Assembly (NCBI RefSeq): GCF_048403405.1
Contig: NZ_CP183129.1
From: Escherichia coli
GTDB lineage: Bacteria > Pseudomonadota > Gammaproteobacteria > Enterobacterales > Enterobacteriaceae
Length of the DNA stretch: 64,000 nt
Direction: 5' to 3' (one strand)
Part shown: positions 5,021 through 56,459 of the stretch, in pieces
How positions within the stretch are numbered: position 1 is the first letter of the stretch
Layout of the letters: each line of letters starts with the position of its first letter
Position numbers and translations under genes: made by a program
Notes under the pieces: model-generated
What the model saw: the letters and a program-made list of their open reading frames with translations, nothing else
Told to the model about the DNA's origin: nothing
The model's database searches: none

Positions 5021-7126
5021 TTAGTGCGCGCCTTTCGCCTGCGCCACGATCTCTTCGACATTTTCCGGCATCGGCTCATATGGCGTTTCTTTCGCCGTTG
5101 GCTTCGGCTCTTTCAATGCCGCCAGTGCCGTCTTAATCGAGAACAGCGCCAGAACCACCACGACCACCATAAAGAAGATGGTTAACCCGGCATCAAGACG
5201 GTTGTTGAATACCAGTTGCGCCAGCTGTGACTCAGTATACTGCGACGGAATATTGCCGCTGTCGATCATTGCCTGGAACTTATTAGCAATCGCCAGGAAG
5301 CCGACTTTCGCATCCGGGCTAAACGCTTTCTGCCAGCCTGCGGTCAGGGTACAAATCAGCAGCCAGGCCGTTGGTACCAGCGCCACCCAGGCGTAACGTT
5401 GACGTTTCATTTTGAACAGCACCACAGCACAGAGCATCAGCGCCATCCCTGCCAGCATCTGGTTGGCAATACCAAACAGCGGCCACAAGGTGTTAATACC
5501 GCCCAGCGGATCGACCACACCCTGATGGAGGAAGTAGCCCCACGCCAGTACGCACAGCGCCGTTGCCAGCAGGTTAGCAGGCAGTGAATCGGTCCGTTTC
5601 AGGCCCGGAGACACCACGCCCAGCAGATCCTGCAACATAAAGCGCGCAGCACGCGTACCTGCATCCACCGCCGTCAGAATAAACAGTGCTTCAAACAAAA
5701 TGGCGAAGTGATACCAGAACGCCACATCCATCATGCCGCCCAGCGCGCCGTGCAGAATGTAGGCCATCCCCACCGCCAGCGTCGGCGCACCGCCCGCACG
5801 GGAAATGATCGACTGTTCACCCACTTCGCTGGCAATCTGGTTGAGCGTATCTGGTGTAATGCTAAATCCCCAGCTACTCACCACCTGCGCGGCAGAAGCA
5901 ACCACATCCGCCGTACCTGCCGGAGCCAGCACCGCCATCGGGCTGTTCATAGCGAAGTACACACCCGGATCGATGATACAGGCGGAAACCAGCGCCATAA
6001 TCGCCACGAAGGATTCCATCAACATCCCACCGTAGCCGATAAAGCACGCCTGCCCTTCGTTCGCCAGCATCTTCGGTGTAGTGCCGGAAGAGATCAGTGC
6101 ATGGAAGCCAGACACCGCGCCACAGGCGATGGTGATAAACAGGAACGGGAACAGGTTACCGGTCCATACCGGGCCAGTGCCATCGACAAATTTAGTTAGC
6201 GCAGGCATGGTCAGCGTCGGGCGCATAATCAAAATGCCCACCGCCAGACCGACGATAGTCCCGATTTTCAGGAAGGTAGAGAGGTAGTCACGCGGAGCCA
6301 GCAGCAACCACACCGGCAGCACCGCCGCCACAAAACCGTAACCCACCAGCATCCAGGTCAGCTGCACGCCGGTAAAGTCAAAGTACGGTGCCCAGGTCGG
6401 ACTTTCTGCCACCCAGCCGCCAGAGATAATGGCGAAAATCAGGAATACCAGACCGATGACCGACACTTCACCAATACGCCCCGGACGCAGATAGCGCAGG
6501 TAGATCCCCATAAACAGCGCCAGCGGAATGGTGAACGCAACGGTATACGTTCCCCACGGGCTATGAGTCAGGGCTTTCACCACGATCATCGCCAGTACGG
6601 CAAGGATAATGACCATGATCATAAAGCAGGCCACCAGCGCTATCACCCCGGCGGTTGGCCCCATCTCTTCTTTGACCAGCTCACCCAGCGAGCGACCGTC
6701 ACGGCGCGTAGAAACAAACAGCACCATGAAATCCTGCACCGCACCGGCGAGAACCACCCCGGCGAGCAGCCAGATCATCCCCGGCAGGTAGCCCATTTGC
6801 GCTGCCAGCACCGGCCCAACCAGCGGACCTGCTCCGGCAATGGCCGCAAAATGGTGACCGAACAGCACTTTCTTGTCCGTCGGCACATAGTCCAGCCCGT
6901 CGTTATGGCGCACCGCTGGCGTCATACGCGTCGGGTCAACCGCCAGCACATTTTTGGCGATATACAGACCATAAAAACGGTAAGCGATCAGATAGATACA
7001 GACCGACGCCACCACAATCCACAGCGCGTTGATCTGTTCCCCACGATTTAAAGCAATGTATCCCAGAGCAAATGCTCCCATTACAGAGAGCACTGTCCAG
7101 ACGAGGTATTTCCCTGATTTGTTCAT
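5021..7126 (-). CDS. cstA: carbon starvation protein A (peptide/pyruvate transporter)
   Basis: 701-aa polytopic membrane protein ORF; matches recalled CstA. Confidence 0.95.
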   Translation of the reverse strand: MNKSGKYLVWTVLSVMGAFALGYIALNRGEQINALWIVVASVCIYLIAYRFYGLYIAKNVLAVDPTRMTPAVRHNDGLDYVPTDKKVLFGHHFAAIAGAGPLVGPVLAAQMGYLPGMIWLLAGVVLAGAVQDFMVLFVSTRRDGRSLGELVKEEMGPTAGVIALVACFMIMVIILAVLAMIVVKALTHSPWGTYTVAFTIPLALFMGIYLRYLRPGRIGEVSVIGLVFLIFAIISGGWVAESPTWAPYFDFTGVQLTWMLVGYGFVAAVLPVWLLLAPRDYLSTFLKIGTIVGLAVGILIMRPTLTMPALTKFVDGTGPVWTGNLFPFLFITIACGAVSGFHALISSGTTPKMLANEGQACFIGYGGMLMESFVAIMALVSACIIDPGVYFAMNSPMAVLAPAGTADVVASAAQVVSSWGFSITPDTLNQIASEVGEQSIISRAGGAPTLAVGMAYILHGALGGMMDVAFWYHFAILFEALFILTAVDAGTRAARFMLQDLLGVVSPGLKRTDSLPANLLATALCVLAWGYFLHQGVVDPLGGINTLWPLFGIANQMLAGMALMLCAVVLFKMKRQRYAWVALVPTAWLLICTLTAGWQKAFSPDAKVGFLAIANKFQAMIDSGNIPSQYTESQLAQLVFNNRLDAGLTIFFMVVVVVLALFSIKTALAALKEPKPTAKETPYEPMPENVEEIVAQAKGAH

Positions 7127-8469: not shown

Positions 8470-9326
8470 TATTTCACCTCGCGGGAAAGTAGCTTCCACC
8501 AGGCGTCGATGGTCGGGTTTTTCGCCAGCATGACAAAGTCGATATCGCCATGCACTTTGCGCCAGCGCGCCGCCAGCGCCATCATGCGCACCGAATCCAG
8601 ACCGTAGTCGATCAGGTTGTCGTCATCGAACGGTTCATCGGACTCGTCCAGCAACGGCAGGATCACCTCACGCAGCGCCGCTTTGCTGGCGGGGATAGGT
8701 GCTGGCAGTAATTCTTCGGTCATCACCACCCGGCCAGAACGTCCGGCCACATATTTCAGCGACATCAAATGCTCGTCACGGCTGAAATCGGCCAGCGCAT
8801 CTGCCACCATAAACGGTTTAATATCGCGCATAAATGCGTCGGTTGCGGTGGTCATACAGCCAATGTGGGCATATACCCCGGTAATAATCAGCTGGTTACG
8901 TCCACTCTCTTTCAGCATTTGCTCCAGCGGGGAACGATGAAACGCGCTGTAGCGCCACTTCACCAGCACCGTGTCGTCGGCATCTGGCGTCAGGCTATCC
9001 ACCACCTTTTGCTGTTCCGGCGAACGGGTCAGGCCAGGCCCCCACATATCATTCAACAGCGCCCGATCTTCATCGCTCTGCTCTTTCGGCTGGGCGGTGT
9101 AATAAACCGGGATATTGTGCTGTTTGCAGTAGTCGCGTAGTGCCGCAATATTCGCGATCACCTGCTCCATCATCGGGCAGTTCTCGCCCCAGAAGCTGAC
9201 AAAATAGTCCTGCATATCATGGATTAACAACGCGGCACGTTGCGGTTCAAAGGCCCAGTCGACTTTATTCTGCGGAATATCGTGAGACTCCGGCAGTGCG
9301 TAAGCCTGTAATTTTGGAATAGCCAT
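8469..9326 (-). CDS. entB: isochorismatase / aryl carrier protein
   Basis: 285-aa ORF; matches EntB. Confidence 0.95.
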
Positions 9327-26617: not shown

Positions 26618-26716
26618 TGCCGGATGCGGCGTGAACGCCTTATCCGGCCTACAAAAATCTTGCCAATTCAATATATTGCAGGACCACGTAGGCCTGATAA
26701 GCGTAGCGCATCAGGC
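26618..26716. repeat. REP / BIME element (two inverted REP units)
   Basis: Units atgccggatgcggcgtgaacgccttatccggcctac and gtaggcctgataagcgtagcgcatcaggc match the E. coli REP consensus; lies between fepA and entD. Confidence 0.65.
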
Positions 26717-28597: not shown

Positions 28598-29115
28598 TTT
28601 TTCGTGGGATGAGCTAAGGCTTTCAGCTTTTTTAGATACATAAGCCGCGTTTCAAGAAATCGAACTTGCCTTTCAAGATCCTCAATGCGTCGGTCTTTTG
28701 ACAGCTCCAATGCTGATGCCGCTTTTTCTGGATCAACTGATATTGCAATGTTTCTTTTGGTGCCAATCTTGAGCGCGCGTAAACCAGCTTCTCCGCGCTC
28801 TTCATAGACCTTCAGCCACCTGGCTACAGAACCACTACCAGCAAGCATAAAGTGAGCAGCAGCCTGATTAAGGGACATGTGCTGCTCGATCACAGCTTTC
28901 ACGACCTTAATACGCAACTCTGGATCAGCACTAACGCCTTTAGGTTTGGGAATTAAACCTTTTTCTCCATGTTTTTCATAGAGGGCAACCCATGTCCTGA
29001 CCTGGGTTCGGGGGACACCAAAACGTGCCGAGATGATCCTGTAACCATCATCAGTTGTGAAGTAGTGATTCACGACTTCAAGGCGCTTTTCAAAAGGGTA
29101 TTTTGGCTTTGACAT
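28594..29115 (-). CDS. insJ: IS150 transposase OrfA (HTH)
   Basis: 173-aa ORF MSKPKYPFEKRLEVVNHYF... recognised as IS150 InsJ. Confidence 0.9.
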   Translation of the reverse strand: MSKPKYPFEKRLEVVNHYFTTDDGYRIISARFGVPRTQVRTWVALYEKHGEKGLIPKPKGVSADPELRIKVVKAVIEQHMSLNQAAAHFMLAGSGSVARWLKVYEERGEAGLRALKIGTKRNIAISVDPEKAASALELSKDRRIEDLERQVRFLETRLMYLKKLKALAHPTKK

Positions 29116-29526
29116 ATTAGGGGCTATTCCATTTCATCGTCCAACAAAATGGGTGCAGTACAGGGTTGATAGAAATATCTCCTGGGGCTTCATCTTTCCA
29201 GACCTCAGAGTAAACCTGAAACCGGAAAGCTTCAGGCACCCGCCGTTATCTTACCCTTCCTCAGCAAAATAGCTGTTTATTTATACAGTGAGTCCTGTTT
29301 CGGACTTCTCACTCCTAATTTGATCAACTGAAGCTGAACCCGTTTTTTTCTGCATGCCTCAATCGTCAAAATTCTTCGCCACCAGCCAGCTCTGCCATAA
29401 CTTGTCACATTGCAAAAGTAGCCAAATTGCTTCAGTCACCATCACCAAAAAAAAGAAACATTCCAGAACTTCCGCATCTCGCCCAGCCGCTCCGACTTCT
29501 ATACTGAATAGAAAACGCCAACATAA

Positions 29527-41170: not shown

Positions 41171-41990
41171 GGCACTGTTGCAAATAGTCGGTGGTGATAA
41201 ACTTATCATCCCCTTTTGCTGATGGAGCTGCACATGAACCCATTCAAAGGCCGGCATTTTCAGCGTGACATCATTCTGTGGGCCGTACGCTGGTACTGCA
41301 AATACGGCATCAGTTACCATGAGCTGCAGGAGATGCTGGCTGAACGCGGAGTGAATGTCGATCACTCCACGATTTACCGCTGGGTTCAGCGTTATGCGCC
41401 TGAAATGGAAAAACGGCTGCGCTGGTACTGGCGTAACCCTTCCGATCTTTGCCCGTGGCACATGGATGAAACCTACGTGAAGGTCAATGGCCGCTGGGCG
41501 TATCTGTACCGGGCCGTCGACAGCCGGGGCCGCACTGTCGATTTTTATCTCTCCTCCCGTCGTAACAGCAAAGCTGCATACCGGTTTCTGGGTAAAATCC
41601 TCAACAACGTGAAGAAGTGGCAGATCCCACGATTCATCAACACGGATAAAGCGCCCGCCTATGGTCGCGCGCTTGCTCTGCTCAAACGCGAAGGCCGGTG
41701 CCCGTCTGACGTTGAACACCGACAGATTAAGTACCGGAACAACGTGATTGAATGCGATCATGGCAAACTGAAACGGATAATCAACGCCACGCTGGGATTT
41801 AAATCCATGAAGACGGCTTACGCCACCATCAAAGGTATTGAGGTGATGCGTGCACTACGCAAAGGCCAGGCCTCAGCATTTTATTATGGTGATCCCCTGG
41901 GCGAAATGCGCCTGGTAAGCAGAGTTTTTGAAATGTAAGGCCTTTGAATAAGACAAAAGGCTGCCTCATCGCTAACTTTGCAACAGTGCC
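41171..41990 (+). mobile_element. IS26 (IS6 family), 820-bp copy 1
   Basis: Termini GGCACTGTTGCAAA ... TTTGCAACAGTGCC; internal 234-aa Tnp26. Confidence 0.95.
41234..41938 (+). CDS. tnpA: IS26 transposase Tnp26 (variant with His at residue 29)
   Basis: MNPFKGRHFQRDIILWAVRWYCKYGISY(H)ELQEM... recognised as the IS26 transposase. Confidence 0.95.
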   Translation: MNPFKGRHFQRDIILWAVRWYCKYGISYHELQEMLAERGVNVDHSTIYRWVQRYAPEMEKRLRWYWRNPSDLCPWHMDETYVKVNGRWAYLYRAVDSRGRTVDFYLSSRRNSKAAYRFLGKILNNVKKWQIPRFINTDKAPAYGRALALLKREGRCPSDVEHRQIKYRNNVIECDHGKLKRIINATLGFKSMKTAYATIKGIEVMRALRKGQASAFYYGDPLGEMRLVSRVFEM

Positions 41991-42439
41991 AATTTTACGC
42001 CGTCGGCGGTACGCAGCCAGCGCGGGGATTTGAGTCCTTCCGTGAAATTCCAGACCAGCTCACACAGCAGCCCGGTCAGGGTTTGCTCCATTTTTGGTTC
42101 CGCCGGACGTTCCAGCAGAAGCTGGAGTAGTGCGAGGCAGTATTCGCACAAGGAATCAGGTTCGGAAATAAAGTGCTCTGGTGTGGCGGGAAGGGTATCC
42201 ACGGTCAGGCTTTCGGTAAGATGCGGTGGGATGGGGTCGTGTAGTGTGGGTTGCAGTAGCGCAAGAGCCGCGTGAAGCCGCCCGCAGAGCGCCAGTCGTA
42301 GCGCTGGATCGTCGGTTTCAATCAGGGTTTCGGCAAAGCGGGCGCAGTAGTCAGCAAGGACAGTGAAATCCGTGGTGGCATTGAAGGGGACGGTCAATAG
42401 ATCGAGTAAATCGCTGTCAGTGGTGAGGATTGTAGCCAT
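41972..42439 (-). CDS. hypothetical acidic protein; 3' end runs into IS26 (probably truncated)
   Basis: 155-aa ORF with a GGAGG Shine-Dalgarno upstream of the ATG at 42439; its last codons and stop lie inside the IS26 inverted repeat. No family recognised. Confidence 0.45.
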   Translation of the reverse strand: MATILTTDSDLLDLLTVPFNATTDFTVLADYCARFAETLIETDDPALRLALCGRLHAALALLQPTLHDPIPPHLTESLTVDTLPATPEHFISEPDSLCEYCLALLQLLLERPAEPKMEQTLTGLLCELVWNFTEGLKSPRWLRTADGVKLALLQS

Positions 42440-42785
42440 AGGGCAACCTCCGATAAGTGGGTGTTCAAGCCACCACCGGAGAGGCTAATCTCGCGGGTGG
42501 TGGAACCGGGCAGGGTTAGCCTTACCAGCCTTATCGGACACTGGCGCGTCTTGCGACGCCCCCGCCCGGCCCACCATTGAGATGTAACCGTGCGAACAAC
42601 ACAAAAAAAGACGCTGGCGCGTCATGTGTCGCCGATAAGATTTCTTCAGGAGGCTAATCCCGACGCCTGATTTTGCAGGCGCGGGAGAAAGATACTGCGA
42701 TTGGTCATGAGTGGCAAGGGCTACATCATGTTTACCGACATCTCACGCAAAAATACCCTGATTATTAATAGCGAAAATCAGTTTC

Positions 42786-45700
42786 TTATTTTGGCGGTAG
42801 CTTTTTGCGGTTCTTTGCCAACTGGAATCCTTCAGGTAACGGTTTGAATTTATCGCCGCCTTTAGGCCAGCGTTTTGCCCTGCTCTGAAATGCCCTTAAC
42901 GAGTCGATATCCAGCGTTGCAGCGACCACAAAGTCATTATCACCGCCCTTCACACGAGCAATATCACGCATAAAGGGTTCTTTTGCCGGGGAACGTACGC
43001 GACTATCGCCGTATTTTCGGTTATTCACTAAAATAGTATAGGCATGAATATCCAGCGCTGCTGATTCAATCAACGATGCAAACGTATCTAGATCTTTATT
43101 CCAGCTCAATACCATTAATGCATCGAGTGCGCCCTGAAAACGGATCCTCGCTTTACTATTCTGGAGTTCAGAGCAAATCATAACGCCAAAATTGACGCCG
43201 TGATGAATATATACCGGCTTACGTTGTTTAACATTAAGTGTCGAATCCCAAGACTTACCATAAGTTGAAAATAATGCCTCATCTTCACCTACGGCGGGTT
43301 CCAGCTTGGGTTGCCATATTTTGACACTCGCTGGATAGCCGAGTCTGTTATCTGAAAGGACAAGTACGGCCTCACTCTTCAGTTGATTATCGTCTAAGTG
43401 GCGGTATTCTGTTCCCGCAATTAGACTGATACCCGCCGAACTCAAACGATCAGCAATACTGTTAACCCAGCGTAACGGGATTGAAAGCTCAGGGAATAAA
43501 ACATAATCAGGTTTAGGAGATAGTTTCAATGTTGCATTAACCAGTTCAGAAATCCGCTGGTACCTTGAACGGGACAAGTTAGATTTATTGCAGGCCATTT
43601 TAGCCCAGTCGTCCTCCTCTGTTTTAATGCTGGTTAGCGCAACGACAACTTTATGTTTCCTGTCTGTGCCAATATGAATGAATTTCTTAGGCCGAGCTTT
43701 TTTTGTCGCTTCATCTGAGTCCTGCTCCGATGCTAGCAACGTCGGTTTGATCCATACTCCGCGTAATGCTTGAGTATATTTTGCCCAAATGGTGGACGGT
43801 CTCTCATCTGGTTTTTTGTCGGATGTGGAGGGTAATCCAACACATTCGGGGGCCAGTTCTGATATTTCAGCGGGTGTTAAAGGACGTGTAGGGAAAATGT
43901 AAGGTAGGTAACTTTCGTTTTTACGATTTCCTTTAGCCACTTTTTCCAGTCGGGTATTCTTGGTTGATTTCAAAAATAGCTTAATAACGTCAATATCAAT
44001 AAGCGATGAGTCGCTCATTAATTTCAGTATTTTAACTTCTTTTTTACTATCACGCTGATTAACAAGTTTTTCTGCCGACTGACTCTTTACGATCTGTTTA
44101 TAAGGTTCCTTTGCTAAATCAGCTCGAGCTACCAATGGCGCTTTTAAATAAAAATCTGCTGAATCAAAGCGAAGATCCAGTAAATCCTTTAGATTCGTCA
44201 GACTTTGTGAAATATGATTAAAAAATGTATCCGCAAGGCACTCTTCTTTCTTTGAACGTTTATCAAGAAATAATCTGTCAGGACTGTAATATCGTGTCGC
44301 TGCATCAACAAATAGCCAGCTTAATGTGCCTTTTATACAGCGCCAAAGATCATTTACTGCTCGAGTTTTGCAACCATTTATATTCACTTCCTTACCTGAA
44401 GTAATCACCGATGCCAACAGGTTGATGGATTCGTAAGCTTTAAGTACAATTTTTTCCGCGTGCTGCCATTCATTCATACTGATAGCAAAGCCAAGCAGCC
44501 TTGGCAGATAACTAAAATGTGCAAATAGATTATCAGCCCTAAGAATATGGTTGTAGGCAAACTGATAAAACTCTTCCCGCTGTTCTTTCCATTCACTTGG
44601 AGGCAGATCTCGTGCCAGTGTTTCAACGTAGCGTAATTGCAGTGACCAGCCCAAACGACGAATGGTTAATCCATCCGCACGGCGCAGAGTATCGGCATTT
44701 TCACCTACACTACCGGCAGCGGAAAGGACTTTAGCTGCGGTGGAGTGTTCCAGTTGATCCGGTGAAGGCATCAAGCGGTGTTCACTAGAAAGCTCGTAGA
44801 TCTCCTTTTCGATACTGTCGAGCAGGTCTATTCCAGCCCTCCCTTGAAGCACGAAAAGTTTTTGCTTATCGGATTGTAACTGGATGGTGGTCTTACCCTG
44901 GAAATGCTCGCCCTGCTGTATTTGCCATATTTGTTTTTGCTCGTTTTTCAAATAAACGCAATCATTGCCAAGCCTATCTTGCAGCAATAACATAAATTCG
45001 TGATTATTAGTAATTGTCCCTGTATCGCGTATTACAAGGAACATATCATCGACATAACGACCGTAGTGAATTGGTGATAGTTTTTCAATGACTAATTTAT
45101 CCCAATGGTGTAGCAATATATTTGAAATGATCCGACTGGCTGTTAATCCAATGACCAGACCACCATTAATAACAGGTGTTTTGTACGCTATTTTCTTTCC
45201 AAATGCCGCTGCGCCGTCAGACCAGTGCTTTAAGAATACTGCTAACTGTGCAGTAAACGCTTTTTCATCCTCAGTCAGTTTTATGTTTAGTGTGTTATAG
45301 AGATCATCAGAGGTTATAGCCAGTGGATCAATAAAATGATAGTAACTTTTTAAATCCAGTGAGGCGGCGATAATGTCACGATCTTTTTCCAACTCGTCAC
45401 GTATAGCTTTTAAGCCATCACCACGCCATTTTTGGTAGGGCTGGAAGTAGGGGCTAAAAGAACCCACGGCACTGATATGGAATGGATTATCCTGCTCATT
45501 GCTAAATAATTCATCATTACGAATACGCTTTAGCCGCGCGCCATAGCAACAGTTATCTAAGCTGGCATCAAATTTATGCCCGACCATGTTAATCCATAGT
45601 GCAGAGATAATGTGACTATCAACCGGGAAGTCACCAATAATACGAAACTCTGGTATCAGATCAAAATTATTAAATAAATGGTCGGCTGCTCGTTTAGGAT

Positions 45701-45995
45701 TAGAAAAGTGGACGTGTCCATTTTGGGATTCATGTTTTTTCTTTGTGGTTAATTTTTTCGGTAACAAACGAAATTTGCCAATCAACTTCTTATTGCTACT
45801 GAATCCATCTTCGCTCTGCAAAAGATCTAAGAGTTTTTGCAGGTTTTCAAGTAATTCCTGCTCATACTCGGCAAATTTGATAGCAACAGGAAATGTATTC
45901 TCAAAGAAGCTATCGGCTTTTGCTTTCCGGTAAGCGACCAGAAGGTCTTCAATCGTCAGATCATCCCAGCCAGTGAAAATTGCCTGATATGTCAT
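42786..45995 (-). CDS. reverse transcriptase-nitrilase fusion protein (DRT type 1 / UG1-like defence-associated RT)
   Basis: 1069-aa ORF with AAGGA Shine-Dalgarno. RT motif A ASLDLKSYYHFID, motif B GGLVIGLTASRIISNILL, motif C RYVDDMFLV (nt 45033-45059); C-terminal CN-hydrolase domain with FPELS (Glu836), VKIWQPK and GVMICSEL (Cys941, nt 43173-43175). Confidence 0.85.
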   Translation of the reverse strand: MTYQAIFTGWDDLTIEDLLVAYRKAKADSFFENTFPVAIKFAEYEQELLENLQKLLDLLQSEDGFSSNKKLIGKFRLLPKKLTTKKKHESQNGHVHFSNPKRAADHLFNNFDLIPEFRIIGDFPVDSHIISALWINMVGHKFDASLDNCCYGARLKRIRNDELFSNEQDNPFHISAVGSFSPYFQPYQKWRGDGLKAIRDELEKDRDIIAASLDLKSYYHFIDPLAITSDDLYNTLNIKLTEDEKAFTAQLAVFLKHWSDGAAAFGKKIAYKTPVINGGLVIGLTASRIISNILLHHWDKLVIEKLSPIHYGRYVDDMFLVIRDTGTITNNHEFMLLLQDRLGNDCVYLKNEQKQIWQIQQGEHFQGKTTIQLQSDKQKLFVLQGRAGIDLLDSIEKEIYELSSEHRLMPSPDQLEHSTAAKVLSAAGSVGENADTLRRADGLTIRRLGWSLQLRYVETLARDLPPSEWKEQREEFYQFAYNHILRADNLFAHFSYLPRLLGFAISMNEWQHAEKIVLKAYESINLLASVITSGKEVNINGCKTRAVNDLWRCIKGTLSWLFVDAATRYYSPDRLFLDKRSKKEECLADTFFNHISQSLTNLKDLLDLRFDSADFYLKAPLVARADLAKEPYKQIVKSQSAEKLVNQRDSKKEVKILKLMSDSSLIDIDVIKLFLKSTKNTRLEKVAKGNRKNESYLPYIFPTRPLTPAEISELAPECVGLPSTSDKKPDERPSTIWAKYTQALRGVWIKPTLLASEQDSDEATKKARPKKFIHIGTDRKHKVVVALTSIKTEEDDWAKMACNKSNLSRSRYQRISELVNATLKLSPKPDYVLFPELSIPLRWVNSIADRLSSAGISLIAGTEYRHLDDNQLKSEAVLVLSDNRLGYPASVKIWQPKLEPAVGEDEALFSTYGKSWDSTLNVKQRKPVYIHHGVNFGVMICSELQNSKARIRFQGALDALMVLSWNKDLDTFASLIESAALDIHAYTILVNNRKYGDSRVRSPAKEPFMRDIARVKGGDNDFVVAATLDIDSLRAFQSRAKRWPKGGDKFKPLPEGFQLAKNRKKLPPK

Positions 45996-46289: not shown

Positions 46290-47093
46290 ATGTCTATTCA
46301 GAGGCGACAGTTGCCAAACTATCTAAACTGGCTGATGCAGCACACGCTACCCGGCCAGGTGCTGCTCCAGTCATGGCTTACCCGCAACGGCATAGATCGT
46401 AAGCTCTCTTATCTCTATGTGAAGAATGGCTGGCTCAGGCGGATCGCTCACGGCGTATACTGCCGGACGGGCCGTGAGCCGGATTGGGTAGACGCGGTTT
46501 ACTGCCTTCAAACACAGTGGGAAAAGCCTGTTCGGGTGGCGGGGCTAACCAGCCTTGCGCTTCAGGGCCATGCGCACTATACCGAACCGGGTAAGCCGCA
46601 GGTCTGGCTCGCGCTTCCGGCTTACGTTAAGCTGCCGGGATGGTTTGCTGCCTTCGAACAATCTGCAACATTTATCACGCTGTATACATCGGGGCTTACC
46701 GTAGATGTAACGTCATTGACTACGGAACTGAAAATTGGCGACCGCCAGTTAGCAGGCAGTGCCCCGGAACTGGCCGCGTATGAGATCGCCTGCGGCGTTC
46801 CTTCGTTGATATCGTTCGAACATGCCGATGCTCTGTTTCAGGGGATGAATCTTCTCAGCCCACGCAAATTGCAGGCACTGCTTCGCGCCAGCCATTCGGT
46901 TAAAACCAACCGGGTGATGCTTTACCTTGCCCGGCGTAATGGACACCCTTATTTTCAGTATATTGATCAAAGCGGTATAGAAACAGGTACGGGAAAGCGG
47001 CAAATCATACCCGGCGGCTGGCTGGAGCCGGATTATCAAATTACTGTTCCACGCGCATTTAAACCGGAAGGAGTCGAAGATGGATCTGCGTGA
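46290..47093 (+). CDS. AbiEi-like antitoxin / transcriptional regulator (type IV TA)
   Basis: 267-aa ORF immediately upstream of, and overlapping by 14 bp, an AbiEii-like nucleotidyltransferase gene; N-terminal wHTH-like region with an R-x-x-x-G-V-Y motif. No clear Shine-Dalgarno, so the start is uncertain. Confidence 0.65.
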   Translation: MSIQRRQLPNYLNWLMQHTLPGQVLLQSWLTRNGIDRKLSYLYVKNGWLRRIAHGVYCRTGREPDWVDAVYCLQTQWEKPVRVAGLTSLALQGHAHYTEPGKPQVWLALPAYVKLPGWFAAFEQSATFITLYTSGLTVDVTSLTTELKIGDRQLAGSAPELAAYEIACGVPSLISFEHADALFQGMNLLSPRKLQALLRASHSVKTNRVMLYLARRNGHPYFQYIDQSGIETGTGKRQIIPGGWLEPDYQITVPRAFKPEGVEDGSA

Positions 47094-48000
47094 TAGCTAT
47101 GCCCGGCAGGTCAAACTGTTGATGGCCGCTCTGCCGTATGTGGCGAAGGAGTCCTGTTTCGCGTTGAAAGGCGGCACCGCAATCAATTTGTTTGTGCAGG
47201 ATTTTCCCCGTCTGTCGGTGGATATTGATCTGGCGTACAAGAGCTTTGCGGATCGCGATACTGATTTGGCGGCTATCAACGACGCTTTGAAGAGGATTAC
47301 TGCATCGCTGAACGGCAGACCGGGGATCACCGCGATTCGGCAGGAAAATAAAGCGGATGAAAAGCGCATCATTGTGAATACCGCTGATGCAAAGATTAAG
47401 ATCGAGGTTAGCCCGGTCTGGCGCGGGCTGTTGTTGCCTCCGGCAGAAATGCCTGTGTGCGAACGTGTGGAAATGGAGTATGGCTTCACCACCATGAGTG
47501 TCGTCTCGCTGGCGGATCTTTATGGCGGTAAAATCTGCGCTGCGCTTGATCGTCAGCACCCGCGCGATCTGTTTGATGTGCTGAATATGCTGGAGAAACC
47601 GGGACTGATGCGGGAGATCTTTGACGGTTTTCTTTGTTATCTGGCAGGCCATCCCCGCCCCATCGCCGAGTTGCTGGCTCCAAACTGGGATACAGAGCGG
47701 ATCGCCACGTTGTACGCGCAGGAATTTTCGGGGATGACTCAGCAGGAAACGTCGCTGGAATCGCTGCTGTCAGTAACGACTTTGCTGCCGCAGGCGTTGA
47801 AGTCACATCTTACGGATCTGGATCGCGAGTTCTTGCTCAGTTTTAAGCAAAACAGCCCTGACTGGTCGCGGTATCGCTATCCTGAAATTCAGCATCTTCC
47901 GGCTATTCGCTGGAAGCAACGTAATCTGGCGGTGCTGAAAGATAAAAATCCGGCGAAGTATGTGGCGGCGGTGAATAAGCTAGAGAGGGTGCTGGCGTAA
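47080..48000 (+). CDS. AbiEii-like nucleotidyltransferase toxin (DUF1814 family)
   Basis: 306-aa ORF with GGAG Shine-Dalgarno; N-terminal nucleotidyltransferase motif LKGGTAINLF...LSVDIDLAY typical of AbiEii/AbiGii toxins. Confidence 0.8.
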   Translation: MDLRDSYARQVKLLMAALPYVAKESCFALKGGTAINLFVQDFPRLSVDIDLAYKSFADRDTDLAAINDALKRITASLNGRPGITAIRQENKADEKRIIVNTADAKIKIEVSPVWRGLLLPPAEMPVCERVEMEYGFTTMSVVSLADLYGGKICAALDRQHPRDLFDVLNMLEKPGLMREIFDGFLCYLAGHPRPIAELLAPNWDTERIATLYAQEFSGMTQQETSLESLLSVTTLLPQALKSHLTDLDREFLLSFKQNSPDWSRYRYPEIQHLPAIRWKQRNLAVLKDKNPAKYVAAVNKLERVLA

Positions 48001-48689: not shown

Positions 48690-49509
48690 GGCACTGTTGC
48701 AAATAGTCGGTGGTGATAAACTTATCATCCCCTTTTGCTGATGGAGCTGCACATGAACCCATTCAAAGGCCGGCATTTTCAGCGTGACATCATTCTGTGG
48801 GCCGTACGCTGGTACTGCAAATACGGCATCAGTTACCGTGAGCTGCAGGAGATGCTGGCTGAACGCGGAGTGAATGTCGATCACTCCACGATTTACCGCT
48901 GGGTTCAGCGTTATGCGCCTGAAATGGAAAAACGGCTGCGCTGGTACTGGCGTAACCCTTCCGATCTTTGCCCGTGGCACATGGATGAAACCTACGTGAA
49001 GGTCAATGGCCGCTGGGCGTATCTGTACCGGGCCGTCGACAGCCGGGGCCGCACTGTCGATTTTTATCTCTCCTCCCGTCGTAACAGCAAAGCTGCATAC
49101 CGGTTTCTGGGTAAAATCCTCAACAACGTGAAGAAGTGGCAGATCCCACGATTCATCAACACGGATAAAGCGCCCGCCTATGGTCGCGCGCTTGCTCTGC
49201 TCAAACGCGAAGGCCGGTGCCCGTCTGACGTTGAACACCGACAGATTAAGTACCGGAACAACGTGATTGAATGCGATCATGGCAAACTGAAACGGATAAT
49301 CAACGCCACGCTGGGATTTAAATCCATGAAGACGGCTTACGCCACCATCAAAGGTATTGAGGTGATGCGTGCACTACGCAAAGGCCAGGCCTCAGCATTT
49401 TATTATGGTGATCCCCTGGGCGAAATGCGCCTGGTAAGCAGAGTTTTTGAAATGTAAGGCCTTTGAATAAGACAAAAGGCTGCCTCATCGCTAACTTTGC
49501 AACAGTGCC
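48690..49509 (+). mobile_element. IS26 (IS6 family), 820-bp copy 2
   Basis: Same termini as copy 1, same orientation; one nucleotide differs from copy 1 (G at 48838 versus A at 41319). Confidence 0.95.
48753..49457 (+). CDS. tnpA: IS26 transposase Tnp26
   Basis: 234-aa ORF with ...GISYRELQEM..., the form recalled as canonical for Tnp26. Confidence 0.95.
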   Translation: MNPFKGRHFQRDIILWAVRWYCKYGISYRELQEMLAERGVNVDHSTIYRWVQRYAPEMEKRLRWYWRNPSDLCPWHMDETYVKVNGRWAYLYRAVDSRGRTVDFYLSSRRNSKAAYRFLGKILNNVKKWQIPRFINTDKAPAYGRALALLKREGRCPSDVEHRQIKYRNNVIECDHGKLKRIINATLGFKSMKTAYATIKGIEVMRALRKGQASAFYYGDPLGEMRLVSRVFEM

Positions 49510-56382: not shown

Positions 56383-56459
56383 TGGCGCGCCCTGCAGGAT
56401 TCGAACCTGCGGCCCACGACTTAGAAGGTCGTTGCTCTATCCAACTGAGCTAAGGGCGC
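56383..56459 (-). tRNA. argU: tRNA-Arg (anticodon UCU)
   Basis: The reverse complement reads GCGCCCTTAGCTCAGTTGGATAGAGCAACGACCTTCTAAGTCGTGGGCCGCAGGTTCGAATCCTGCAGGGCGCGCCA: cloverleaf, UCU anticodon, 3' CCA. Confidence 0.9.

Follow-up and report, generated by a model that had tools for sequence, protein, structure and literature searches.

A probable phage-type IsrK-C4 antisense cassette beside a UG5-large RT-nitrilase gene of Escherichia coli

The 346-nt gap (42440-42785) between a UG5-large RT-nitrilase gene and the next gene, here called ORF155, very probably holds a complete and apparently intact phage-type antisense immunity cassette, IsrK(SeqA)-C4(CI)-target leader, which would control ORF155. 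Such a cassette is already known biology, and it would serve the downstream gene, not the reverse transcriptase (RT). Family membership, the C4 fold with its covariation, co-changing a and b recognition sites, consensus matches of promoter and terminator, and independence from the RT are the results of the present analysis on which this reading rests. Coordinates refer to the window, the whole 64,000-nt stretch of Escherichia coli DNA that was analysed. Both genes that flank the gap lie on the minus strand, and the main elements are the following.

42786-45995, minus strand: UG5-large RT-nitrilase gene, 1069 aa (PADLOC RT_UG5-nitrilase PDLC03780, E=0, 1034 bits, residues 1-1068)
42689-42717, minus strand: predicted sigma-70-type promoter, -35 TTGCCA (42717-42712), 17-nt spacer, -10 TATCTT (42694-42689)
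42604-42682, minus strand: IsrK-like sRNA (Rfam RF01394, 68.8 bits against a gathering score of 50, model positions 1-77 of 77)
42603-42623, minus strand: predicted intrinsic terminator of the IsrK-like RNA, GACGC GCCA GCGUC (42623-42610) followed by U7, a consensus match
42493-42581, minus strand: C4 antisense RNA (Rfam RF01695, 71.1 bits against a gathering score of 45, model positions 1-87 of 87)
41972-42439, minus strand: ORF155, the predicted regulated gene, 155 aa, from a family of about 153-156 aa restricted to Enterobacterales

Results

Repeats and hairpins of the gap

An earlier note on this DNA had described an ORF-less region of 345 nt with a GC-rich hairpin and three recurring motifs, written in plus-strand letters. 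The RT stop codon lies at 42786-42788 and ORF155 starts at 42439, which sets the length at 346 nt; no ORF of at least 50 aa was found in the gap, the longest from ATG having 46 aa. The hairpin (arms 42470-42478 and 42494-42503) and all three motifs are where they had been placed: ccgataag at 42450 and 42632, gaggctaatc at 42481 and 42650, and ctggcgcgtc at 42541 and 42614. The reverse complement of ccgataag also exists, at 42530, one base from the position first given (42529). In 1000 dinucleotide-preserving shuffles of the 346-nt gap, the 7 identical non-overlapping 8-mer pairs (shuffle mean 0.82) were reached 5 times, and the 6 reverse-complementary 8-mer pairs (mean 0.88) 11 times. This confirmed that the hairpin and the repeats are real and beyond chance expectation.

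An IsrK-like RNA followed by a C4 RNA

The proposal that the gap encodes structured RNA was borne out by the Rfam matches to isrK and C4, by folding z-scores and by compensatory changes. The promoter is the sole promoter-like site in 42380-42900, with 9 of 12 consensus matches; it gives a predicted transcription start at about 42682, the first base of the isrK match, and phage copies of the cassette carry a -10-like hexamer at the equivalent place. Both the promoter and the terminator are consensus matches, predicted from the sequence. The isrK match has an E-value of 1e-12 to 2e-14 (Rfam scan of the whole window and a permissive scan), and the segment folds with a z-score of -3.45 into a first hairpin, a hairpin with a site a1 in its loop, a single-stranded site b1 and its own intrinsic terminator. 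The permissive scan also placed the c4-a1b1 family (RF03163) at 42695-42643, overlapping the isrK match, with 43.8 bits, just under its gathering score of 46.7; the region is better described by the isrK model. We regard the IsrK-like sRNA as a structural homologue of P4 SeqA. One further Rfam match, WT1-AS_2 (E=0.11, plus strand), is noise.

C4 begins 22 nt past the end of the isrK match. RNAs of the C4 family are excised from a precursor in an RNase P-dependent manner; the product is stable, measures about 77 nt and acts as a repressor of the gene downstream. The RNA at 42493-42581 is a homologue of P1/P7 c4, of the P4 CI RNA and of Salmonella STnc1160, and folds into a long closing stem around two hairpins, with a minimum free energy of -51.1 kcal/mol and a z-score of -4.17 (none of 200 shuffles was equally stable). 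For comparison we used the window together with 16 further tandem copies, 17 loci in all: islands of E. coli (L002, L023, L024), a metagenomic island (L010), a Salmonella replicon (L025), and the phages Gifsy-1 (L012), P4 (L013) and nine lambdoid/Stx phages (L014-L022). Rfam found C4 in each of the 16 further copies and isrK directly upstream in all but one. Over the 17 loci, where C4 measures 84-89 nt, 99.3% of the cells of the C4 fold are paired, compared with 35-49% in slid-partner controls, and compensatory changes were seen in 13 of 27 pairs.

Recognition sites that change together

Two elements of C4 have complements on either side of it, and these account for two of the three recurring motifs.

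42530-42538, minus strand: b', loop of C4 hairpin 2, UCCGAUAAG, the reverse-complement copy of ccgataag
42516-42522, minus strand: a', AGGCUAA, single-stranded, where hairpin 2 joins the closing stem
42650-42659, minus strand: site a1, GAUUAGCCUC, core UUAGCCU (42651-42657), complement of a' and second copy of gaggctaatc
42632-42639, minus strand: site b1, CUUAUCGG, complement of b' and second copy of ccgataag
42481-42490, minus strand: site a2, GAUUAGCCUC, in a hairpin loop 5 nt past C4, first copy of gaggctaatc
42449-42457, minus strand: site b2, CUUAUCGGA, first copy of ccgataag

Upstream, in the IsrK-like RNA, a1 is a 7-nt perfect complement of a' about 75 nt before C4, and b1 an 8-nt perfect complement of b' about 58 nt before it. 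Downstream, a' and a2 are complementary over 7 nt, and b2, about 36 nt after C4, is a 9-nt perfect complement of b' that overlaps the Shine-Dalgarno sequence, itself 8 nt before the AUG of ORF155. Site b2 and the ribosome-binding site together read CUUAUCGGAGG (42447-42457, minus strand), with the Shine-Dalgarno GGAGG at 42447-42451 and the AUG at 42437-42439; in nearly all loci the b2 match extends into the GGA(G) of the Shine-Dalgarno.

These sites differ widely between loci, and they differ together. Among the 17 loci there are 10 distinct a' cores and 16 distinct b' cores, with matching complements in almost every locus at fixed offsets (a1 about -75, b1 about -58, a2 +5, b2 about +35). 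The a1 position is complementary in 15 of 17 loci despite the 10 different a' sequences, and b1 co-varies with b' over the loci. Summed complementarity of a C4 with its own targets averages 28.1 nt, against 12.3 with the targets of loci that have different loops. An 18th locus, L027, carries a further specificity (a: UUGACCU; b: UUUGUUGG) in all three places, and the island allele of E. coli ZH063 (L002) has a different b specificity. Since b', b1 and b2 have changed coherently in that allele, selection appears to have acted on the b trio within the island lineage. Taken together, this is strong sequence evidence that the pairings of a' and b' with both sets of targets are the selected function of the cassette. 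The ccgataag and gaggctaatc repeats are the recognition sites of the C4 system, and every conserved repeat is accounted for by this pairing.

The third repeat, ctggcgcgtc (GACGCGCCAG), has one copy in the IsrK terminator and one in C4 hairpin 1. It is present as first described, but we rejected it as a functional element, since the same two elements have just 5-8 nt in common in the 16 other loci. Most likely it is a coincidence between two GC-rich hairpins, peculiar to this lineage.

A conserved alternative helix

The GC-rich hairpin pairs part of C4 with sequence downstream of it.

42470-42503, minus strand: GC-rich hairpin, CCACCACC (42496-42503) with GGUGGUGG (42470-42477), inner stem GAGA/UCUC, loop formed by a2

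The arm CCACCACC (42503-42496) is also the 3' strand of the closing stem of C4, so that the hairpin and the closing stem of the mature C4 are mutually exclusive. The two-tier helix is nevertheless conserved over the 17 loci: 94.1% of its cells are paired (33-60% in slid controls), with changes on both sides in 9 of 12 pairs, P4 giving a compensatory example (CUAUCGCC/GGCGAUAG). The alternative helix may belong to the precursor, or may present a2; the simple antisense model leaves its conservation unexplained.

A protein annotation over the C4 region

RefSeq annotates a 54-codon 'ash family protein' with a CTG start at 42485-42649, whose translation matches Pfam PF10554 (Phage_ASH, E=1e-4). In Gifsy-1, moreover, translation of orf45 over the equivalent region is reportedly required for anrP expression (PMC4825925). 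It could therefore be considered that the region encodes a small protein, of the 'ash' or the orf45 kind, instead of or besides the RNAs. The CDS requires a CTG start, however, the ATG-started ORF having 46 aa. Over the 17 loci, C4 also has indels inside the would-be frame that are not multiples of three, and variation in the region obeys base-pairing rules rather than codon rules. The PF10554 match arises whenever the gene call of ORF155 extends 5' across C4, as would be expected if the family had been built from translated RNA genes. We consider a protein-coding role extremely improbable, and the 'ash family protein' and PF10554 annotations appear to be translated RNA genes.

Independence of the cassette from the RT

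The earlier note had offered the region as a plausible template or scaffold RNA for the RT. A template, primer or scaffold ncRNA of the UG5 RT-nitrilase, as known for retrons, DRT2, DRT3 and DRT9, would fit a structured RNA that directly follows the RT and shares its strand. Every RT-positive E. coli genome has the RT adjoining the same cassette allele, and the two closest RT orthologues, L010 (82% aa identity) and L027 (81%), also have isrK and C4 downstream. Viewed from the cassette, the association is not specific. The cassette occurs in 1063 of 5426 complete E. coli genomes, and just 260 of these 1063 have the RT; about 800 carry it without any RT. The isrK-C4 tandem was also found in P4, Gifsy-1, nine lambdoid/Stx phages and three other islands, and the cassette lies in addition downstream of type I restriction genes, Rhs genes and phage genes. 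In E. coli ZH063 the place of the RT is taken by a type I restriction-modification operon (hsdR-hsdM-hsdS), after which comes a cassette 89% identical to that of the window; homology to the window resumes at 42718, just at the -35 region of the cassette promoter. This defines a cargo slot of 46086-42719 with the cassette outside it.

Viewed from the RT, the result is the same. Eleven other lineages of RT orthologues were compared (69-82% aa identity), and 9 of the 11 have neither C4 nor isrK, which speaks against the conservation in homologous RT loci that an RT-associated RNA was expected to show. These nine (69-76% aa identity) come from Salmonella, Citrobacter, Yersinia, Vibrio, Marinobacter, Pleionea, Kluyvera and metagenomes, and blastn of seven of them gave no similarity to the gap. 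Their contexts are unrelated: after KwaA/KwaB-like genes in type I restriction-modification operons, after an SMC-like ATPase, or near Tn7-like genes. The gene before the RT extends up to or into the RT start in most of them, so that a conserved flanking RNA would have no space there, and all-against-all blastn of the 800-nt flanks of the RT orthologues returned only similarity attributable to neighbouring genes. The two cassette-bearing orthologues share the same island backbone, with a homologue of ORF155 after the cassette, so that their cassettes look like co-inheritance. The spacers between RT stop and cassette promoter in the three RT-plus-cassette lineages (67, about 80 and 193 nt) cannot be aligned with one another.

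For a UG5-large RT-nitrilase of Sinorhizobium, a 2025 preprint reports that RNA-seq found no flanking ncRNA. The likeness of the cassette to retron msr-msd and to the template ncRNAs of DRT2, DRT3 and DRT9 lies only in its position beside a defence-associated RT. Unlike them, it is not co-conserved with the RT family and is widespread without RT, and its conserved features serve antisense recognition of a ribosome-binding site further downstream. With isrK and C4 accounting for the structured RNA, a role as an RT ncRNA is very unlikely, and a lineage-specific co-option of the RNase P-processed C4 RNA by this RT is equally hard to credit. The alternative that the earlier note had held in reserve, a structured 5' leader of the downstream ORF, came close to the truth, with the difference that the leader is part of a cassette that would control ORF155. 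The RT-nitrilase itself is best seen as cargo between abiEi and the cassette promoter, with no functional tie to the RNA cassette.

One further hairpin was read from the sequence in the 3' flank of the RT cargo, which is 67 nt long (42719-42785).

42749-42781, minus strand: weak terminator-like hairpin, CUGAUU, 12-nt loop, AAUCAG, then GGUAUUUUU

It possibly ends the RT transcript, a suggestion in which we place low confidence; the consensus terminator scan did not flag it, its loop exceeding 8 nt. The flank is absent from the ZH063 allele, and the flanks of L010 and L027 are dissimilar to it.

The island and its displacement by IS26

The native place of the cassette is a decayed island at tRNA-Thr (thrW), in the order integrase remnant, abiEii, abiEi, cargo, cassette, ORF155, integrase remnant, thrW. 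A pair of IS26 copies of the same orientation (41171-41990 and 48690-49509) encloses, in the window, a truncated ORF155, C4, IsrK, RT, abiEi and abiEii, with cusC outside the pair on one side and a 5'-truncated nfrB, nfrA, argU and fimZ on the other. The bracketed fragment and its flanks imply that a piece of the thrW island was moved by IS26 into the cus-nfr region of an E. coli chromosome, where it replaced cusRS.

Three other placements of the locus were considered and set aside. Two PLSDB 'plasmids' match the window at 100%, but NZ_CP146678.1, whose record we inspected, has chromosomal pao genes, and the flanks of the window (cusCFBA, nfrBA, argU, fimZ) also count against a plasmid. The known defence hotspot of P4 satellites lies elsewhere, psu and int being its borders (PMC9122126), and the locus has none of the structural and regulatory genes of P4 (sid, delta, psu, epsilon, alpha). 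A rich cargo hotspot at thrW was likewise rejected, since megablast gives essentially two E. coli alleles, with RT or with type I restriction-modification; the megablast matches of the '90-95%' class are 55-nt stretches of isrK that belong to other elements.

The gene under predicted control

ORF155 belongs to a family with 564 matches, all from Enterobacterales and all 'hypothetical'. It is an intact frame of 156 codons in hundreds of genomes; in the window IS26 sequence takes the place of the final 8 codons, and homology to the intact gene stops at 41991. No family match was obtained in Pfam, NCBIfam, PADLOC, PHROGs or a PDB sequence-profile search, and no similarity to antirepressors was found. 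The AF2 model is a helical bundle (pLDDT 73.7), for which Foldseek found nothing in PDB or BFVD beyond generic bundles (E above 0.01), and tblastn against phages gave just one unannotated record of 1.5 kb. The protein begins MATILT, and a MAT I/T L/P start is common to the first ORF after P4 CI and to phage genes at the same position. The sharing of these first codons probably reflects a constraint at the RNA level. Where the island is better preserved, a small HTH gene comes after ORF155, and then an EFASI RNA and an Integrase_1-type gene.

The state of the island raises the question whether the cassette still works. It could be a fossil, a true IsrK/C4 pair in a decayed fragment with neither expression nor regulation: in the native E. 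coli island only an integrase remnant and thrW come after ORF155, where intact relatives continue with the HTH gene, EFASI RNA and Integrase_1 gene, and in the window ORF155 is itself truncated. Given a degenerate island and the codons lost to IS26, the switch may control nothing useful any more. However, the promoter, the terminator and the C4 fold have been preserved, and so have all six recognition sites; the ORF155 frame is likewise intact in hundreds of genomes, and the b specificity of the ZH063 allele changed coherently in all three places. We therefore consider an inactive fossil unlikely, and a functional antisense cassette remains our preferred reading.

Discussion

For the cassette, characterised homologues serve as the model for how C4 is processed, in which direction regulation goes and whether the IsrK-like RNA acts as a decoy, and we propose that it would work as follows. 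Transcription on the minus strand would start at about 42682 from the promoter at 42717-42689, and most transcripts would end at the terminator at 42623-42603, giving an IsrK-like sRNA of about 80 nt with a1 and b1. Read-through transcripts would run through C4 (42581-42493) into the leader of ORF155, and C4 would be excised from them, by analogy with P1/P7 c4 and P4 CI. Once freed, C4 could pair through a' with a2 and through b' with b2 over the Shine-Dalgarno of ORF155, the a'/a2 loop contact assisting occlusion of b2 and the Shine-Dalgarno. Such pairing would block ribosome binding and so repress ORF155, and would secondarily favour premature termination. The short IsrK-like RNA, with a1 and b1 as decoys, could draw C4 away from its targets and so favour translation of ORF155, as has been shown for Gifsy-1 IsrK.

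The closest parallels are three known immunity systems. In P4, the immunity region in the leader of the alpha operon is laid out as seqA - CI RNA (seqB) - seqC, and the CI RNA, processed from the leader, pairs with seqA and seqC and stops expression of the downstream operon. P4 has the same tandem as the window (isrK 60.8 bits, C4 74.9 bits), the a2/b2 rule and the covariation of the alternative helix hold there, and the first ORF after CI starts MATTLT, close to the start of ORF155. It differs in a longer isrK-C4 spacing and in weak a1/b1 complementarity (4-5 nt by a simple exact-match scan). P4 CI acts mainly via transcription termination (PMC4825925).

The immI region of P1/P7 (a1 b1 - c4 - a2 b2 - icd - ant; RF01695, RF03163) has the same order of elements and the same C4 fold. 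There too, a' and b' are matched by one upstream and one downstream pair of sites, the downstream b covering the ribosome-binding site of the first gene. The c4 RNA binds the ant mRNA around the ribosome-binding site (PMC12197685), a pairing attributed to Citron & Schuster 1990, as cited in PMC2864571. In contrast to immI, the target of the cassette is ORF155 and not icd/ant, its host is a decayed chromosomal island and not a plasmid prophage, and its upstream a1b1 segment, which fits the isrK model, has a terminator of its own.

Gifsy-1 (IsrK - STnc1160/orf45 - anrP; Hershko-Shalev et al. 2016, PMC4825925; RF01394) shares the promoter-proximal sRNA, the leaky terminator, the C4-type RNA and the regulated ORF, as well as the complementarity of the short RNA to the downstream RNA. 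Its IsrK is described as structurally homologous to P4 SeqA, with the stable processed RNA STnc1160 downstream (PMC4825925). The short terminated IsrK acts in trans and makes the read-through mRNA translatable, and both this trans-activation and Hfq binding are reported for it (PMC4825925). The downstream gene is where the two part: in Gifsy-1 it is an antirepressor that turns on the Q-like antiterminator AntQ, and in the cassette it is ORF155.

A broader reading, which we regard as improbable, is that the cassette anchors a family of enterobacterial integrative islands (C4 - ORF~153 - HTH - EFASI RNA - Integrase_1) in which cargo is swapped upstream of the promoter, with ORF155 as an infection-responsive output. 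The swapped defence cargo would be the RT-nitrilase, type I restriction-modification, or both. The a and b specificities vary as much as phage immunity types do, so that cross-talk with the island could arise from an incoming phage or satellite whose IsrK-type decoy or C4 matches it, and ORF155 would then be an infection-responsive output beside defence genes.

For anyone who clones the RT-nitrilase, what is conserved with L010, the closest orthologue sampled, is the ORF together with about 40 nt before it, and the RNA region that follows the RT should be dispensable. The main value of the finding is thus a correction: what looks like a template ncRNA beside a defence RT is the regulatory cassette of a neighbouring mobile-element backbone. 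It also places a widespread Enterobacterales protein, ORF155, under predicted C4 control. The a and b sites offer a clean natural case of co-change between a regulator and its targets, one that may be used for predicting cross-immunity among prophages, satellites and islands.

An IS26-bracketed segment carrying defence genes

Between two IS26 copies in direct orientation lie 6.7 kb of the thrW island, the native E. coli setting of the IsrK and C4 RNA cassette, in the order ORF155'-C4-IsrK-RT-abiEi-abiEii, where ORF155' is ORF155 with its end replaced by IS26 sequence:

41171-41990: IS26
46290-48000, + strand, divergent from the RT gene: AbiEi/AbiEii type IV toxin-antitoxin (abortive infection) pair
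48690-49509: IS26

Outside the IS26 pair, one side continues with cusC and the other with an nfrB truncated at its N-terminus, and therefore neither cusRS nor the 5' end of nfrB is present. The bracketed segment is an IS26 pseudo-compound transposon with defence genes, inserted in the chromosome. The AbiE pair is kept at 94% identity in the island allele in which type I restriction-modification replaces the RT (L002, strain ZH063).

Gene settings were read at eight loci with orthologues of the UG5 RT-nitrilase (L003, L005, L006, L007, L028; L008, L011, L029). These often lie within type I restriction-modification operons, directly 3' of KwaA/KwaB-like (Kiwa-like) genes; some others overlap an SMC_N/AAA ATPase gene at its stop codon. 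These settings suggest multi-gene systems, unlike the stand-alone arrangement in the window.

PLSDB labels NZ_CP146678.1 (64 kb) as a plasmid, and likewise CP088862.1 (35 kb). NZ_CP146678.1, the one of these records whose gene content was inspected, combines chromosomal paoABCD, ykgJ and yagU with the thrW island and with tail genes of a prophage, and is probably a mis-assigned chromosomal contig. Three further RNA features were detected in the window:

26654-26695, + strand: ES036 sRNA (Rfam, 42.2 bits)
29086-29241, - strand: sok antitoxin RNA (Rfam, 63.7 bits)
56383-56459, - strand: tRNA-Arg(UCU), argU

Protein annotation over the C4 gene and relatives of the island

In RefSeq, the gene of the antisense RNA C4 is overlain by a protein annotation, in the window and at two other loci:

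42485-42649, - strand: 'ash family protein' CDS, 54 codons, CTG start
L001, 12137-12301: 'ash family protein' CDS over C4
L002, 12140-12298: 'ash family protein' CDS over C4

The translated CDS matches Pfam PF10554 (Phage_ASH, E=1e-4), and the same match is acquired by ORF155 homologues whose gene call is stretched 5' over C4. The Pfam/NCBI 'Ash' family appears to be, at least partly, a translated RNA gene.

In the E. coli copy L024, the IsrK terminator hairpin is deleted (about 5040-5086) and isrK falls below its gathering score, whereas its C4 and a/b sites are intact; this natural variant should show constitutive read-through. In relatives with a better preserved island backbone, an EFASI RNA was found directly upstream of an Integrase_1-type gene, and L025 also has a STAXI RNA:

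L003, 7836-7966: EFASI RNA
L010 (metagenomic island), 9005-9133: EFASI RNA
L024, 6962-7095: EFASI RNA
L025 (Salmonella replicon), 6421-6550: EFASI RNA
L025, 6073-6199: STAXI RNA

The backbone C4 - ORF~153 - HTH - EFASI - Integrase_1 appears to mark an island family of its own.

An alternative helix and a shared start after C4

Within the closing stem of C4, the 3' strand also pairs with a downstream complement, forming a conserved, covarying helix in the window (42470-42503, - strand) and at 16 other loci. This helix and mature C4 are mutually exclusive, and it could have a role in the precursor, switch processing or present the complementary site a2. The ORFs 3' of C4 all start AUGGCUAC.../AUGAC... 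(first 15-20 nt, at all loci; 42439-42420 in the window), giving N-termini of MAT or MTT followed by I/T/V and L/P. Beyond this shared start they are unrelated, comprising ORF155, the first P4 ORF after CI and phage antirepressor-like genes. The regulatory RNA may extend into the start of the coding region after C4.
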